A DNA stretch of 64,000 nucleotides, from contig JBFIML010000012.1 of the NCBI GenBank assembly GCA_041611735.1, forward strand, positions 1 through 64,000, given 5' to 3'. The DNA comes from Myxococcota bacterium (GTDB lineage Bacteria > Myxococcota_A > UBA9160 > PR03). A program made the position numbers. This document shows, one piece after another, positions 3,001 to 12,000 of this stretch (positions are counted from its first letter, which is position 1; each line of letters starts with the position of its first letter).

Positions 3001-6000
3001 TGCCGCGTCATCGGTGGCGGCGGGTCGGGCCTTGAACCCGTCCGGGGGCCGGACTCGCGCCCGGCGAGTGGCGTCCCAGCGCATCCCAGCGGGTCACCCG
3101 GTTGCGGCCCGCTTCCTTGGAGGCATACAGGGCTTCGTCCGCCTGGTTGATCAGCTCCAGGGCCTTGCTGGCGCCGAATGACATGGACGAGACTCCGAAG
3201 CTGGCCGTGACCGGGACCCGGGCGAAGCCCGGCGACGCGATCTTGCGGCGTATCCGCTCCGCCACGTTGACTGCCACCTCCACGGTCGCATCCGGAAGCA
3301 CGATGCAGAACTCCTCGCCGCCGTAGCGGCAGACTGCGTCCGTGGAGCGGACCTCCTGCGACAGCGCCTCCGACACGCCGCGGATCACCTCGTCTCCCAT
3401 CAGGTGCCCGTGGTCGTCGTTCACGCGCTTGAAATGGTCGATGTCCACCATCACCGCACACAGACGGCGGCCTTCCTGCTTGGCAGAGGTGAAATAGGTT
3501 TCGAAGCGCTCCAGGAAGGCCCGCCGGTTGGCCACTCCCGTCAGCGGGTCCGAACGGGCCAGGATCGTCAGCTCCTCGTTCTGGAGCCGGATCTCCTCCT
3601 GGGATTTCTCGAGCCGGCCATTCGCCTCTTCGAGTTCGGCGTGCTTGCGCTCGAGCTCGGTCACGTCGTCGAAGGTGGCAATGGCACCCTTGGCGCGCCC
3701 GAACCCGTCCAGGACGGGCGCTCCCTTGATCACGAAGGAGCGCAGCTCGCCGTCCGCGGTGCGCAGGTGCAGGCGACCCGCATGGGTCTGGGACTGGCGG
3801 ATGGCCTCGAGCCATGGGTAGCTGCGGGGCGCTTCGTCGGAGCGCGGCACGCGCCAGTCCAGACTCGAGGCCTTGCGCCCCATCAAGGCGGCCCGGGGCT
3901 GTCCGCTGCGCTCGGCGAAGGTCTCGTTGGCGAGCACCACCCGCCCCCGGTCGTCCAGGAGCAGCACGCCTTCCGCCATCACGTCCAGGGTCGTCTGCAC
4001 GCGGGAGGGGATCACCGAAGACGGGTCCAGATGTCGCAGCGAACGCCGCAAGTAGAGCCCGTACGACAAGAAGCCCGCCGCGGCCATCAACACCAGCAGC
4101 CGCACCATGGGGCGGCTCCACAGCGCCTCGATCAGGCTTCCTGGACCCAGCTGCTGGAAGCGGACCTCGAGCGTCGCCCAGGGTCCCCCGGAGCGGAACA
4201 GCGGAATGCGGGCGTGGGTGGACGTGCTGCCCGTCTCGGTCTCGGACTCCCACAGGGCCGCGTGGTCACCGGCCACCACCAGCAGGCGCCCGTCCGCGGC
4301 GCGCAGGGCAGCGGAAAGCACCTCCTCGTTGCGGCGCACGGCGACCTGGAGCGCCGCCCGCACCGAGGCGAAGTCGCTGCGCTCCGCCGCGATGGCGGCC
4401 TGGGCGGCGAGCTGCTCACAGAGGCGGATACGCGATTCGAGTCGTATGTCCGCGGGAGTGGGCATGAGACCCGCGAGATCCAGGACGATCAGCAGGGAGC
4501 AGGTGAGGATCACCAGGCCCCAGCTGAGGCGGATCACCGGGGAGAGCGTGTTCACGGCCGCAGGGTCACTCTTCGAGGAAGCGAACCTGGCAGTGCAGGC
4601 CGCTTGGAATCGCGTGGTCCGGGTTGGGCAAGAGGAGCCGGACGCCAAAGGTTCCGCTGGCGGCGTCCACGACCCGATCCACGATGGCCACCTGGGCCAC
4701 GTGGACGCGGTCGCCGGGCTGCTCGGGGACCACCGCCGCCCGCATGCCCGTCCGGACCGAGCCGAAGCGGGCCGAGGGGAGGATCACCTCCACCCGCAGC
4801 GGATCGATCTCGGCCACGGTGAGGATGGTGTCCTGATCCACCATTTCGCCGACGGAGCGCCGGCGCTCCACGACCACCCCCGAGATGGGGCTGTGGATCC
4901 GGCGGCGCTCGAGGGTGGCGATGGCCCGCTCCAGCTCCAACTGCGCCAGGCGCTGCTTCTCGTGAGCCTGACGCAGCTCCAGGGCAGCCAACGCCGACTC
5001 GGTCTCGATCTCGTCACGGAGGTCGAGCGAGAGCGCCTCCCGCTCGAAGAGCAGCTCGGCACGTGCCTGCTTGCGCTCGCCCAGGGCGAGCCGCGCCTGC
5101 CGCGAGCGCACCTCCCCCTCCATCTTCGCCGCGGCGCGCGCCAGCTCCACCTGGGCCCGCTCCACGGCGGATTCGAGCTCCGCCACCGGCTGGCCGGCAT
5201 CGACCAGGTCGCCGCGCTCCACGTGGACCTGTTCGAGGACACCACGGACCGGGCTTCCGATCTCGACCAGCTCGTGGGGCTCGATCACGCAGTCCAGACT
5301 CTCGGAGCCGCTCTCCTGTGCCGCAGCGAGGTCGGGACCCTCCCCAGGCAGCGCATGCGCACGGGAGAGAGCCTGGGTCGCGGGGCGGGACGGTCCCGGA
5401 AGCGTCTCGGAGCGAGCAGGCACGGCGCCGCGGCCGCTCCCCTCCCCCTCTCGCACCGCCGTACAGCGCGGGCTCACGAGCAGGACGAGGGTGGCCACCA
5501 CGCCGGCGGCAGGCACGAGCCAGCGGCGCGCTCCACCCAGGCGCCCTCGGACCGACACGTTCCGGCTCCCACCTCCCACCGGCTCGTCCCTATTCTCCCG
5601 GGCCGGCGAAGGCGAGGACATCGCTCATGTATTCCTCGAGCTCCATGAGCGCACGGCGCATCCGCGAGTGTCGTTTCTCTTCGGCCCGTTGGGGCAGGAA
5701 CGTAAGGGCTCCGCCAAGGCCAGGACCCAGGGGATGGCCGAGCCGAGCCAGGAGGGGCCGCGCCCACGCGGCGTAGAACGCCTCCATCGGCTGGTCCTCC
5801 AGGGAAAAGATGGACTCGTAGCTCCCAGGATCCCCCTGGCGCCCGCAGCGTCCGAAGAGCTGCCGGTCGATGCGACGGGCCTCGCTGCGCTGGGTGGCAA
5901 TCACGTGCAAGCCCCCGCACGCGGCCACGCCCGCGGCCAGGCGGATGTCGGTGCCGCGCCCCGCCATGTGGGTGGCGACCGTGATGCGGCCTGGCTCGCC

Positions 6001-9000: not shown

Positions 9001-12000
9001 CGTGGACCTCGCCGCCGTGCACCTTCACGGCGAAGGCGTGGCCCAGCTCGTGGAGCCCCTTGAGGACCGGATAGGCCAGCCAGAGCAGCAGCAGGTTGCG
9101 CGGCTCGAGGAGCGCGTCGCGCGCGCCGTGCGTGAGATCGCCCCAGTGCACGACGGCCAGCACCGCCGCCATGGCCACGAAGGCGCCCCAGACCAGCGCG
9201 CCGGCGCGGGAGAAGAGCGGGCGGACCCAGGGCAGGGCCCGTTCCAGGAAGGCATCCGGATCGACCAGGGGGATGCGTACCGCCAGGGGATTCGCGAAAC
9301 GACGCCACCATTCCTGCTGCTCGCGGCGCTGGCAGCGGCGCAGCAGCTCCTCCGTATCCGGCGAGACGTCGCACTGGAGCACGTCCGCGGCGTGCAGCAG
9401 ACCGAGCAGGCGGATGGCCTCGTCCTGGCTCGGCCCCTCGTCCCCCAGCACCGCCTGGGCGGCCTCCCAGATTTCCTGGGTGGTGCGCTGACCGTCCATG
9501 AGCGCCACCACCTGATACGCGGCGGGAGCGAGGCGGTGGCAGCGGCCGGAGGCACGATCCTCCAGCACGTACCAGACCTCGCCCCGGTAGAGATGCCGGT
9601 GGAAGCGGGCGTGGGGTCGCAGCTGGGGCCGCAGCCGGGCCACCCGATACCAGGATGCGCTGAAGAGCTTGCCGGACACGCTGGCGCCGCCTCAGGGCAG
9701 CCAGGACCACGCCGCCAGGCGCAGCGCGTCCACCAGCCGGTGGCTTGCGATCCAGAGCAGCGAGCGCCGCCCCACCTCGATCTTCGCCATCCCCTCCATG
9801 CCCGGCCGCAGGGACTGGGAGGGCTCCTCCTCGAGGTGGGCCTCGACGCGAAAGGTGTTGCGGCCGTCCTCGGCCGTGGCGACCGGTGTGATCTGCTCGA
9901 CGGCCAGACCGAGGGATCTGCCGGGCAGCGCCGCGAGGGCCAGCCGACCGCGGGCCCCCTCTACCAGCTCGGCCATGTCCTGGTCGTCGACCTTGAGGAT
10001 GATCCGGTAGCCATCGAGGGGAGCGACCTCGAAGAGGACGGCGCCCTTGTCCACCGGAGCGCCCAGGGACTGACTCAGGTCCCCCCGCACCACCACGCCG
10101 TCGAAGGGCGCCACCAGCTGGGTCCGCACCAGGTTCTCCTCGAGCAGCTCGAGCTGGGCCTCCGCCTGGGCGATCTTCGCGCCGAGGATCGCCACCTCGG
10201 CGCGATCGTGACCGGCCAGGGCTTCGCGATGCTCCTTGCGGAGCTGCTCGCGACGGCCCAGCGTCTTGCGGCGCTCGAGGCGAAGGTCCCGCTCGTCGAG
10301 CCGCGCCAGCACCTGCCCTTCCTGGACGACGTCGCCAGCACGCGCGTGAGCCTCCGCCACGTAGCCATCCAGGCCGGCCACGATGGCCCGCTGCACGCGT
10401 CCTTCGAGGGTGGCCTCGGCGATGATGCGGTGGCGGACGGGGACCCACGCGAGCAGGGCGACGACCAGGACGACGAGGCCGGCGCTCGCCTTGGTCTGCG
10501 GATGCCCCGGCTCTCTCAGGCGCACGAACAGACCGCGCAGGGCCTCCCGCCCGCGCTCCAGGAGACGTGTCTCGGCGGCCTGCGCCAGCACCAGGACGGG
10601 CGCCAGCAGCTCGGCCGCTCCGGTGCAGAACGACAGCGCCTCTGCATCGAAGGCGGGCCCTCGCGACCGCTCCAGCGTGAGCGCTCCGATCACCGCCCCC
10701 CGGTGCGCCAGGGGCACTGTGCAGGCGGCCGTCCCGCCGTGACGGGTGGCGAGCTCCTCGTGTGCTCGAGTGATCCGCAGCGCCGCTCCGGGAACCACGG
10801 GATGCGTGAGCACCGCGTCCTGATCGGCCGCCTCCTCCATGGCTGCGGTCAGGTCCCGCGCCAGATTCGCCCGGGGGTCGAAGCGCGCGCTGTGCGAGAG
10901 CGCGACCACGCGCATCTGGCCGCGGCGCACGAGCCCCAGGCTCACGCGCTCGGCGCGCAGCCGGGTCGCGAGCTCGGTGGCGACGGCGGTGGCCGTGGCC
11001 CGCAGACCGCGCTGGGCCAGGGCCACGCTCAGCAGCTCGAGGCACGCCCCGGCGCGATCGGCAACGGCCCCCTGGCCTTGTGAGCGGGCTACGGATTGCA
11101 GGGCGACGAGCTCCCGGTGGAGGAAGTGCTCGGCGGACGGGCCCAATGCCCGCCCCCGGATGGTGTATTCGTCGCTCCCGTGAGGCGGCTTGAAGCGCTC
11201 CGCGGAGGGGATTCCCCCCAGAAGCCTGGGCCGCTCAAGCAGGGCCCTCGGGCACTCCGATATGTCTCCCGCCGAGGAGGCGGCGCGTCCCGTTGGGAGT
11301 CGGCCTCCAGGCCTCCCGCGGCAAGGCGCCAGGAAGGTCCGATGCGGCTCAGCTTCTCAGCGAAGCTCAACGGCGTGCTGGTGCTCGGCATCGCGCTGGC
11401 AGCCGTGGCGAGCGTGGCGCCTGCCGTGCGCGAGTACGGCCTGCGGGAGCAGCAGGCCCTGCTCCTCCAGGGACGCCAGCTCGCTGGCGTGCTGGCCCGC
11501 CAGGGCCGGCGAATCCTCTTCGCTCGAGACCGCGGCGAGGCACACCGCCTCCTGGACGCCCTGGGCGCCCGCAGCGACCTGGCGTATGCACGCCTCCTCG
11601 ATGCCGATGGCGGCCTTCTGGCTGGCGCGGTGTTCCAGCCCGGCTTCGGGATCCCCGAGGTCTCCCTGGACGAAGCGCTCCGGGCCGGAGCTCCCCGGGC
11701 GGGGGCACCCGGACGTGGCGCGGACGCCCCGGCGGACCTGCTCTTCCCCGTGGCCAGCGTCGCCGAGGACGGCTCCGGGAGCGAGCTGCTGAGCGCCCTG
11801 GCCCCGGGCACGCCCGTCCCGCGGATCGTCGGCTACGTCCAGCTCGGCCTGCGCGACCCGGCGCTCGCGAGCCGCGTGCATCAGTTCGGCCTGGCGACCG
11901 CCGCAGCCGCCGCGCTCCTCACCCTGGTGGGCGCCCTCGCTGCCACCTTCGTGACCCGGCGCATGACCCGACCCATCCGCCGCCTGGCCACCCTCACCCG

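Follow-up and report, generated by a model that had tools for sequence, protein, structure and literature searches.

Results

Gene content and order of the locus

Seven genes of the window, i.e., the whole 64,000-nucleotide stretch of DNA that was analysed, share the minus strand in the order adaptor 1, protease (hereafter P), short SecA paralogue, adaptor 2, PAS-GGDEF protein, DUF3467 protein and predicted cargo gene. The first four form the core of the module (4566-11146) and are closely spaced, with a gap of 12 nt between adaptor 1 and P and an overlap of 8 nt between the reading frames of P and the short SecA. The first-pass annotation had described these four co-directional genes, and all of them were found at this position and on this strand; the genes are real, although two of the lengths given there changed, as the longest SecA frame comprises 649 aa and not 640 aa (another start codon), and that of adaptor 2 comprises 351 aa and not 316 aa. 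The features of the locus are as follows:

9692..11146, minus strand: adaptor 1, 484 aa, with a GAF domain, one membrane helix and HlyD domains
7532..9679, minus strand: protease P, 715 aa, a fusion of a PqqD-like domain, an HExxH membrane domain and an HlyD-like C-terminus
9383..9568, minus strand: PqqD-like RiPP-recognition-element (RRE) region of P, residues 38-99 (PF05402)
9038..9052, minus strand: HExxH zinc-binding motif of P (H210, E211, H214), invariant in 25 aligned orthologues
8741..8770, minus strand: second motif of P, N-G-N-P-L-L-R-[YF]-D-G, N304 to G313 (orthologue alignment)
7535..8332, minus strand: HlyD-like periplasmic C-terminal domain of P, approximately residues 450-715 (NCBIfam, Pfam)
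5590..7539, minus strand: short SecA paralogue, longest frame 649 aa (Pfam, NCBIfam, tree)
4566..5621, minus strand: adaptor 2, longest frame 351 aa, an N-terminal membrane helix and an HlyD-type periplasmic adaptor
3008..4648, minus strand: PAS-GGDEF diguanylate cyclase, directly after adaptor 2 (GGDEF 147.8 bits, PAS folds)
2641..3084, minus strand: DUF3467 protein, longest frame 147 aa (PF11950, 41.6 bits, cut-off 25)
3..2561, minus strand: predicted cargo gene, 5' part, at least 853 aa, cut by the contig edge, with LEPR-XLL, DUF4347, DNRLRE and a cadherin-like repeat
2457..2522, minus strand: LEPR-XLL tag, cargo residues 14-35, ...LIEELEPRLLLSADGL..., 26.2 bits

Conservation was re-measured independently in 80 loci from genome contigs of at least six phyla. 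P lies immediately upstream of the short SecA in 65 of the 66 loci with room, the sole exception being an over-extended SecA frame; adaptor 1 is found upstream without exception (61/61), and 61 of 70 loci have adaptor 2 no more than 3.5 kb downstream. This recount upholds the near-fixed gene order claimed before, and the public names of the module proteins are indeed generic or wrong. Cultured bacteria with the module are found in Thioclava, Neptuniibacter and Desulfogranum.

Protease P and the adaptors

The membrane domain of P is site-2-protease-like, and hydropathy places its membrane segments in the stretch of residues 159-445. It scores 19.6 bits against Pfam Peptidase_M50, under the cut-off of 27.2, and 148 bits against NCBIfam daptide_HExxH (residues 18-403, model positions 1-362 of 379), for which the cut-off is 300. 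Domain matches at E ≤ 0.01 among 25 P orthologues comprised Peptidase_M50 in 21, HlyD_3 in 17, PqqD in 15 and HlyD_D23 in 13. The motifs had been called intact, and this is borne out by the alignment, in which N304, N306, P307, L309 and D312 of the second motif are invariant together with the zinc-binding residues; we take the second motif to be the site-2-protease motif of the NPxxxxDG type. The cut-off of PF05402, 23.4 bits, is missed by P (17.1) and exceeded by the Neptuniibacter orthologue (26.5). From these matches, P is predicted to carry a domain that recognises leader peptides, like the daptide leader peptidase. The domain precedes the first membrane segment and is predicted to be cytoplasmic. 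At the other end of the protein, the NCBIfam models type_I_hlyD and RND_mfp match residues 450-605 weakly.

The membrane helix of adaptor 1 is placed by hydropathy at approximately residues 219-237, with the GAF side cytoplasmic and the HlyD-type part periplasmic. Its Pfam matches are HlyD_3 (65.6 bits), HlyD_D23 (53.1) and GAF (31.9), and the NCBIfam model RND_mfp scores 100 bits over a cut-off of 94.9. Adaptor 1 is without the 135-190 extra N-terminal residues of four compared homologues, at whose residues 136-190 the tblastn alignments start; the frame upstream is not a gene. Adaptor 2, whose helix was likewise derived from hydropathy, matches HlyD_D23 (71.3 bits), HlyD_3 (63.8) and RND_mfp (116.3, cut-off 94.9). 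No TolC-type gene lies within the window, and three are encoded elsewhere in the genome; such genes adjoin the module in 9 of the 80 loci, and three of the six loci with scanned neighbours in a SecA-less sister system (see below).

The short SecA

Pfam recognises SecA_DEAD (330.9 bits), PP_bind (81.1) and P-loop_SecA (181.6) in the short SecA, which falls below the cut-offs of all NCBIfam SecA and SecA2 models; its score of 568.2 against NF009538 (cut-off 814) and that of P against daptide_HExxH reproduce those reported before. It aligns to residues 56-648 of the 822-aa Thermotoga SecA chain and has the two nucleotide-binding domains and the preprotein cross-linking domain, followed by no more than the first part of the scaffold helix. 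The chain is too short for a wing domain, a two-helix finger and a C-terminal tail. The earlier description of a SecA keeping the motor and preprotein-binding domains without the wing and C-terminal parts is therefore correct, with the addition that the scaffold helix begins. One branch with 100% support splits the short SecA from canonical SecA in a FastTree tree, and a canonical SecA is also encoded in the genome.

The cargo gene and its tag

The predicted cargo protein matches DUF4347 (199 bits), DNRLRE (107), Cadherin_3 (79.1) and LEPR-8K (21.1, cut-off 17). The DUF4347 match, the only one in the 4.09-Mb genome, closely follows the module on its strand; the LEPR-XLL tag is likewise the sole match above cut-off, and 14 control genomes contain no such match. 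The first-pass annotation had stated that no giant repeat protein is adjacent here; this is wrong, since the DNRLRE protein found there is encoded on the module's strand and belongs to the LEPR-XLL giant class. A frame on the opposite strand (3-2591) has no family match.

E19, R21, L23 and S25 of the tag are invariant in 17 aligned N-termini, and its consensus opens with a K/R-rich stretch and continues as R-P-[LF]-x-E-E-[LVM]-E-P-R-[LV]-L-[LF]-S-A-D. By hydropathy, the N-terminus of the cargo in the window contains no hydrophobic 19-residue stretch of the Sec type. A motif scan of 81 sources gave 24 matches, 21 of them in giant or open frames, and no small precursor genes with the motif; two of the three short matches lie in loci with a giant gene broken into pieces, and the same scan of reversed DNA gave none. 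Tagged giant frames reach 19,427 aa and contain RTX, cadherin, FG-GAP and Calx-beta repeats. The cargo class is that of proteins with an N-terminal LEPR-XLL tag, which we propose as leader and recognition signal.

Linkage of P and the tag across genomes

Among 401 Pseudomonadota genomes, 75 contain P and the tag, 22 P only, 14 the tag only and 290 neither, an odds ratio of 70.6 uncorrected for relatedness. All 38 genomes of this set with P at 500 bits or more have the tag, usually within approximately 11 kb, and the 14 cases of a tag without P have mostly borderline scores. The missing tag in 22 of the 97 genomes with a P-like gene counts against the reading preferred below, and so do the 14 tag-only genomes. 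Among the P matches listed, 48 of 133 tag matches are on the same contig as P, and for 44 of these 48 one end of the giant frame falls within approximately 11.5 kb of P, in most cases on P's strand. The tag was also found in 14 of 15 genomes with a strong P among 251 genomes of the phylum to which the window belongs, where six tag-only genomes score just 17.2-17.9 bits. In one genome with four short SecA genes, each of them shares its contig with a giant frame of 11,649-15,434 aa.

In a sister system, the same protease-adaptor core flanks LEPR-XLL giants with no SecA in 15 of 15 loci inspected, and no other ATPase was found in these loci. The basic mechanism thus does not require a SecA, which in the module looks like an added motor and not the defining engine. 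The earlier label "SecA-driven" has partial support: the ATPase and clamp domains are intact and the place beside P is fixed, but the sister system combines this core and cargo class without a SecA.

Regulatory and accessory neighbours

A cluster of GGDEF/EAL neighbours is present at 15 of the 80 loci, and the PAS-GGDEF protein is likely a regulatory partner of the module. The DUF3467 gene, the single match in the whole genome, closely follows the module on its strand. This family is often an accessory of SecA-type modules; it adjoins the module in 17 of the 80 loci and is present in 23 of 40 SecA-type genomes versus 3 of 57 SecA-less ones, but it is also common outside the module (63 of 304 small genomes without it). 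DUF3467 has no profile similarity to SecB, and its role as a cargo chaperone is only a guess.

Discussion

We hypothesize, with a probability of roughly 60%, that the four genes encode the central part of a dedicated TolC-coupled machine that spans the envelope, exports LEPR-XLL giants and cleaves their leader; the cargo would then be giant proteins that are probably surface or adhesin-like. This reading builds on the observed fixed gene order, domain content and motifs and on the genomic linkage of P with LEPR-XLL. The cytoplasmic PqqD-like domain of P would bind the LEPR-XLL leader like recognition elements bind ribosomal-peptide leaders. The short SecA, an ATPase motor with a polypeptide clamp and without the parts that reach SecY, could dock at P and feed the unfolded giant chain with the N-terminus first, and the HExxH/NPxxxxDG site of P would cut off the leader while the chain passes or afterwards. 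Together with the two HlyD adaptors, the HlyD-like C-terminus of P may form a tunnel through the periplasm towards an outer-membrane channel of the TolC type, which would be encoded elsewhere in this genome and beside the module in some others. Export may be controlled by a small ligand or c-di-GMP through the GAF domain of adaptor 1 and the diguanylate cyclase next to the module, and DUF3467 may keep the cargo export-ready. The export or processing machine tied to giant proteins that had been suggested before thus gains strong gene-context support and a specified cargo, while transport and cleavage are what we infer. A literature search found no paper describing such a machine, and the conserved set points to an undescribed bacterial export route for the largest proteins.

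LapA-type adhesins carry a retention module at the N-terminus, where the tag is also found. The giants could exit by another route, with the module trimming or anchoring their N-terminus under c-di-GMP control, cf. LapG/LapD acting on LapA. The GGDEF/EAL neighbours, in the window as in other loci, and the GAF sensor domain agree with such a control, but we regard it as unlikely. An ABC exporter is absent among the annotated conserved neighbour clusters and in the window at 1-14 kb, so no alternative exporter is encoded nearby. Moreover, a SecA-family ATPase and three tunnel-type adaptors are hard to reconcile with a trimming device, and P would meet the leader before export because its recognition domain is predicted to be cytoplasmic and precedes the first membrane segment.

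Slightly less probable still is a two-step route, in which the short SecA serves the housekeeping SecYEG as a SecA2-like accessory motor, P is a leader peptidase only, and the adaptors with TolC cross the outer membrane. In favour of this route, the short SecA is a genuine homologue of SecA whose motor and preprotein-binding domains are intact, a canonical SecA is present in the same genome, and the linkage of P with the tag would fit equally well. To our knowledge, site-2 proteases are proteases and not protein-conducting channels, hence the inner-membrane path is unexplained in the dedicated-machine reading. However, canonical SecA uses the two-helix finger and the wing domain at SecY, and the short SecA has neither; its gene is fixed beside P and adjoins no SecY-like gene, the leader is without a hydrophobic core, and SecA-less sister systems serve the same cargo class. 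A system for maturation and export of small RiPP or bacteriocin-type peptides with the giant genes as unrelated neighbours is very improbable: the daptide leader peptidase is the closest named relative of P, P has the PqqD-like domain and the adaptors weakly match the NHLP bacteriocin adaptor (NCBIfam), but conserved modifying enzymes are absent from the neighbour clusters of the 80 loci, the leader-like motif sits on giant frames, and one tag-bearing giant per module is found across genomes.

Compared with known systems, the proposed machine resembles type I secretion (HlyB-HlyD-TolC, LapBCE-LapA) in its HlyD-family periplasmic adaptors, TolC-type outer-membrane partner, giant repeat-rich cargo (RTX, cadherin or Calx-beta) and the c-di-GMP genes often nearby. 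In contrast to type I secretion, it has no ABC transporter, its inner-membrane part being a fusion of protease and adaptor to which a SecA paralogue may or may not be added, it has three adaptor-type domains per module, and its signal is N-terminal and probably cleaved, whereas the type I signal is C-terminal and uncleaved. The C39-domain ABC exporters of bacteriocins, such as ComA, CvaB and PCAT1, couple leader recognition and cleavage to export by one membrane protein with an HlyD-type adaptor, as is proposed here. P is of the zinc site-2-protease type and not a C39 cysteine protease, the energy would come from the SecA paralogue or an unknown source and not from ABC domains, and the cargo has thousands of residues instead of tens.

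Accessory SecA2 proteins of Gram-positives and mycobacteria are also second SecA paralogues serving a few special, often large surface proteins, with the motor and preprotein-binding domains conserved. The short SecA remains below the cut-offs of the SecA2 models (470.9/930, 441.3/725, 508.8/1085 and 382/1100), is approximately 120-250 residues shorter, and occurs in diderm bacteria fixed beside the protease-adaptor fusion. According to a preprint (bioRxiv 10.1101/2023.03.08.531785), the daptide protease MpaP has a recognition domain fused N-terminally to an intramembrane site-2 protease and removes a leader with an ELExMEAP motif. P shares this arrangement of an N-terminal PqqD-like recognition domain and an HExxH membrane protease, and the E-E-L-E-P-R of the tag resembles the daptide motif. 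Unlike MpaP, P lies far under the daptide_HExxH cut-off, has an additional 270-residue HlyD-like periplasmic domain, and is partnered by adaptors and a SecA instead of modifying enzymes, with its tag on giant proteins.

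Organization and conservation of the module

The four-gene module claimed by the first-pass annotation is present on the minus strand in head-to-tail packing, with the frames of protease P and the short SecA sharing 8 nt. The genes stand as described there, while their earlier lengths are slightly shorter than the longest frames found here and derive from other start codons. The same-strand genes that follow encode a diguanylate cyclase-type protein, a DUF3467 protein and the putative cargo.

Genes of the module and its surroundings in the window
9692-11146, minus strand: adaptor 1, 484 aa, with GAF, one membrane helix and HlyD domains
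7532-9679, minus strand: protease P, 715 aa, with weak Peptidase_M50 match, daptide HExxH model match and HlyD-type C-terminal 270 residues
5590-7539, minus strand: short SecA, 649 aa as longest frame, with DEAD-like motor, preprotein cross-linking domain and second P-loop domain
4566-5621, minus strand: adaptor 2, a plain HlyD-type adaptor
3008-4648, minus strand: PAS-GGDEF cyclase, on the same strand as the module
2641-3084, minus strand: DUF3467 gene, 41.6 bits
from 2561 off the contig edge, minus strand: 5' part of the putative cargo gene, at least 853 aa, with DUF4347, DNRLRE, cadherin-like repeat and LEPR-XLL tag
11096-14221, plus strand: hybrid histidine kinase with HAMP, HisKA, HATPase, two receiver domains and Hpt
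39389-42283, minus strand: canonical SecA, 964-aa frame, with SecA_DEAD at 40991-42172

Both adaptors exceed the RND_mfp cut-off of 94.9 bits (100 for adaptor 1, 116.3 for adaptor 2). Adaptor 1 is 484 aa long compared with 587-635 aa in four homologues (loci L001, L023, L043 and L054), and nothing in the window corresponds to the first 135-190 residues of these homologues; the adaptor 1 of this genome (G000) is thus without the N-terminal domain, and a longer form was ruled out as there is no upstream extension within the window. The histidine kinase gene is divergent from adaptor 1, with likely starts about 200 bp apart, and may encode a regulator of the module. No Rfam family was matched in window positions 1-15,000.

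A search at one genome per species returned 562 short SecA relatives among 600 candidate stretches, and the best 80 loci were kept. They span Alpha-, Beta- and Gammaproteobacteria, Myxococcota, Thermodesulfobacteriota, Nitrospirota, Acidobacteriota and one Bacteroidota bin, with Thioclava, Neptuniibacter, Rhodobacter flavimaris and Desulfogranum among the cultured carriers. P lies immediately 5' of the short SecA in 65 of the 66 loci with room, the lone miss being an over-extended frame; adaptor 1 is upstream of P in all 61 of 61 loci, and adaptor 2 follows no more than 3.5 kb downstream in 61/70. Public records call P 'biotin/lipoyl-binding protein', 'Peptidase M50' or 'hypothetical protein' and the short SecA 'preprotein translocase subunit SecA'; thousands of genes under the first, third and last of these names could receive a proper annotation.

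When all frames of the 80 loci were clustered and representatives scanned, giant proteins with RTX, Calx-beta, cadherin, FG-GAP and laminin-G repeats formed two neighbour clusters (21 and 20 loci), and further clusters held DUF3467 (17/80), GGDEF/EAL (15/80) and TolC-type OEP proteins (9/80). The three OEP genes of G000 all lie outside the window. A SapC-family gene was seen in or beside the module in 7/80 loci (L002, L017, L021, L043, L044, L059 and L065; in L002 at 6947-7816, 244 bits). SapC is otherwise known from the Campylobacter S-layer type I secretion operon, and we know of no role for it.

The intramembrane protease and the short SecA

The HExxH motif and a second zinc-ligand motif of the NPxxxxDG type, which together mark site-2 proteases, are both invariant in 25 aligned orthologues of P (H210, E211, H214, N304, N306, P307 and D312). 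Family scores are low: the window protein reaches 19.6 bits with Peptidase_M50 (cut-off 27.2), which 21/25 orthologues match at E <= 0.01, and 148 bits with the daptide HExxH protease model NF041824 (cut-off 300). PqqD-like domains are recognition elements that bind the leader peptides of ribosomal natural products. Such a domain (PF05402) matches residues 38-99 of P at 17.1 bits, under the cut-off of 23.4; the Neptuniibacter orthologue exceeds it with 26.5 bits, and 15/25 orthologues match at E <= 0.01.

The short SecA contains the motor with two nucleotide-binding domains and the preprotein cross-linking domain, as in canonical SecA (SecA_DEAD 330.9 bits, P-loop_SecA 181.6, SecA_PP_bind 81.1). 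It stays below the canonical cut-offs (568.2 against 814 for NF009538, 557.2 against 800 for TIGR00963), and its best matched stretch covers canonical model positions 14-492 of 814. Aligned to solved SecA, it stops near residue 648 of an 822-residue chain, which leaves no room for the wing domain, the two-helix finger and the C-terminal tail (we take these domain names, and the roles of the domains at SecY, to be those of canonical SecA). The SecA2 models TIGR03714, TIGR04221, TIGR04397 and NF012136 were compared as well, with 470.9 bits against a cut-off of 930, 441.3 against 725, 508.8 against 1085 and 382 against 1100. In a FastTree phylogeny with few canonical sequences and without SecA2, a branch of 100% local support splits 95 short SecA from 7 canonical ones. 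Phyla are interleaved within the short clade, where the window copy groups with Myxococcota bins. G000 has exactly two SecA-family genes, the canonical copy lying about 32 kb from the short paralogue in the same window.

The tagged giant proteins

Marine and sediment bacteria commonly encode giant repeat proteins of 5,000-19,000 residues, many of which have the N-terminal LEPR-XLL tag (NF012209). In the literature covered, the one relevant mention is in a Vibrio genome paper that notes a LEPR-XLL protein of 8,000 residues. The first-pass annotation saw no giant protein adjacent to the module in G000 and described a 'DNRLRE protein at the contig edge'; this caveat fails because that protein is itself the putative LEPR-XLL/DUF4347 cargo on the same strand, a tagged member of the giant class cut by the assembly. 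It scores 199 bits for DUF4347 and 107 bits for DNRLRE, with a cadherin-like repeat, and the tag lies at residues 14-35 (21.1 bits by hmmscan, 26.2 in the genome search, cut-off 17). Within the 4.09-Mb assembly of G000 (95% complete), this locus holds the sole over-cut-off LEPR-XLL, the sole DUF4347 and the sole DUF3467 match. A plus-strand frame at 3-2591 was rejected as a gene for want of a family match.

Seventeen aligned N-termini are K/R-rich at the start and continue with R-P-[LF]-x-E-E-[LVM]-E-P-R-[LV]-L-[LF]-S-A-D, with E19, R21, L23 and S25 invariant. A local DUF4347 profile found 19 frames in 18 loci, 16 of which begin with a LEPR-type motif. DUF4347 was rejected as the common cargo feature, being missing from 4/5 cultured carriers searched, whereas the tag is shared. 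The giant upstream of the Neptuniibacter module, a single frame of 11,870 aa, is without DUF4347 and has the N-terminus ...VEPRLLLSAD; the shared cargo feature is therefore the tag. A simple motif scan gave 24 hits in 24 of 81 sources, 21 of them on giant or open-ended frames, and zero hits on the same DNA reversed. The longest tagged frame seen has 19,427 aa.

Small tag-bearing precursor genes were sought in the 81 sources and none was convincing. The sole short motif carrier unexplained by a visibly broken giant gene is found at locus L028, where LEQRLLFS lies in a frame about 113 aa long; this frame may represent a small cargo or may stem from misassembly. One genome (G027) has a canonical SecA and four short SecA on contigs C1, C17, C25 and C29, each with its own tagged giant (11,649-15,434 aa). 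Among these short SecA copies, one has diverged strongly (66 bits, long tree branch).

Genome-wide association and the branch without SecA

Among 401 Pseudomonadota genomes, a P-like gene is present in 97 (E <= 1e-30) and a LEPR-XLL match in 89 (E <= 0.05). With P-like present, the tag is present in 75 and absent in 22; with P-like absent, the numbers are 14 and 290 (odds ratio 70.6, Fisher p 2e-46, a statistic that ignores relatedness). The tag is present in each of the 38 genomes whose P scores at least 500 bits, and tag-only genomes mostly show borderline scores or short frames. Of the 133 tag matches, 48 are on the same contig as a listed P match, and in 44 of these 48 cases the giant frame is about 11.5 kb or less from P and mostly shares its strand. 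For the phylum of the window (251 genomes), the tag accompanies strong P in 14/15, the exception being a 410-contig assembly; six genomes have the tag only, at 17.2-17.9 bits, and 13/26 tag matches share a contig with a P match.

The partnership with SecA follows the P score. A short SecA stands beside P in 8/8 loci inspected at 591-658 bits and in 3/3 at 383-392 bits, and in none of 15 inspected at 305 bits or less. In the 383-392-bit tier, P is split into genes of 143 and 589 aa, in the order adaptor 2, P part 1, P part 2, SecA, adaptor 1 (L108, L109 and L110 of genomes G199, G087 and G047). The SecA-less loci (L094-L099 and L111-L119, from G036, G088, G128, G169, G327, G164 and others) present an array of a HlyD protein of about 270 aa, a second of about 450 aa and a P-like fusion of protease and adaptor. 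A TolC-type gene flanks the array in 3 of 6 loci whose neighbours were scanned, and many of the SecA-less loci have a tagged giant close by. No ATPase gene was seen in those inspected. As these loci keep P, the adaptors and often nearby tagged giants, the core of the system appears to be P with its adaptors, and SecA looks like a later addition confined to one branch.

DUF3467 is associated with the SecA branch, occurring in 23/40 SecA-type genomes against 3/57 SecA-less P genomes in Pseudomonadota; 16 copies sit 1.9-3.8 kb from P. It is also found in 63/304 P-less Pseudomonadota genomes, many of them small (1.2-2.9 Mb), so the family is not specific to the module and has another context. The proposal that it is SecB-like was rejected (hhalign of 18 DUF3467 against 5 SecB sequences, probability 0.15%). 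A PDB sequence search gave one chance-level hit and no solved relative, and the protein atlas returned DUF3467 clusters only. With all three comparisons negative, it is from the genomic context that DUF3467 may be a chaperone.

Proposed export route

Gene linkage, gene order and domain content are observed, and from them we infer a route of export coupled to leader cleavage. The putative cytoplasmic recognition domain of P would bind the LEPR-XLL leader, the clamp and ATPase of the short SecA would feed the unfolded chain, and P would cut off the leader. Three adaptor-type domains could bridge to a TolC-type channel, with control possibly exerted through GAF and GGDEF. We give this mechanism as a whole a probability of roughly 60%. 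It has two weak points: we know of no site-2 protease that conducts proteins, and no energy source is apparent for the SecA-less branch.

An unlikely reading is that the module acts as a LapG/LapD-like device for trimming or retaining the giants at their N-terminus. Slightly less probable again is a two-step route via SecYEG with P as leader peptidase. The motor is of SecA ancestry and truncated, and by hydropathy no hydrophobic 19-residue stretch lies near the start of the window cargo, whose N-terminus is by that simple measure not a Sec-type signal peptide.

The export mechanism leads to a broader proposal, for which we see even chances: a new class of bacterial secretion system, TolC-coupled and tripartite, whose engine would be a fusion of leader recognition, site-2 protease and adaptor, with a truncated SecA powering one branch. 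LEPR-XLL would be its cleavable N-terminal secretion signal, and the largest bacterial proteins (frames of up to about 19,000 residues) would be exported over both membranes, N-terminus first. The link between tag and module offers a secretion signal that can be tested, together with candidates for the signal receptor, the leader peptidase and the motor.

Comparison with known systems

The closest relative of P in design is the daptide leader peptidase MpaP, described in the daptide paper (bioRxiv 10.1101/2023.03.08.531785) as an intramembrane site-2 protease that removes the leader and is preceded by a fused recognition element. P appears to be the same fusion with a HlyD-like periplasmic domain added, and the conserved daptide leader motif ELExMEAP is similar in style to E-E-L-E-P-R, the predicted substrate motif of P. 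P is under the daptide cut-off, and the 81 sources lack convincing small precursor genes. A small-peptide system is very improbable here.

The short SecA differs from both SecA and SecA2 in scoring below their cut-offs and in being without their C-terminal parts. Judging from its genes, the module would work in a manner like type I secretion or a peptidase-containing bacteriocin exporter, and it shares HlyD-family proteins with type I systems (two adaptors and the C-terminus of P). No ABC transporter was found among the annotated neighbour clusters of the 80 loci and no ABC domain in window genes between 1 and 14.2 kb, so the component that defines type I secretion is missing. Type I cargo carries an uncleaved C-terminal signal. 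The window cargo is cut by the contig end, and the conserved feature found on the cargo is N-terminal.

In the literature searched (articles open without subscription, main texts rather than supplements), neither the module nor any link between LEPR-XLL and a secretion apparatus was found described, and there was no account of how LEPR-XLL giants leave the cell. The putative export system draws each of its parts from a known family. If it is confirmed, SecA-family motors would be at work away from SecY, and leader-recognition domains would extend from small natural products to giant proteins. The inner-membrane engines of tripartite envelope systems are given as ABC, RND and MFS in a 2021 review, and the confirmed module would add a fourth kind.
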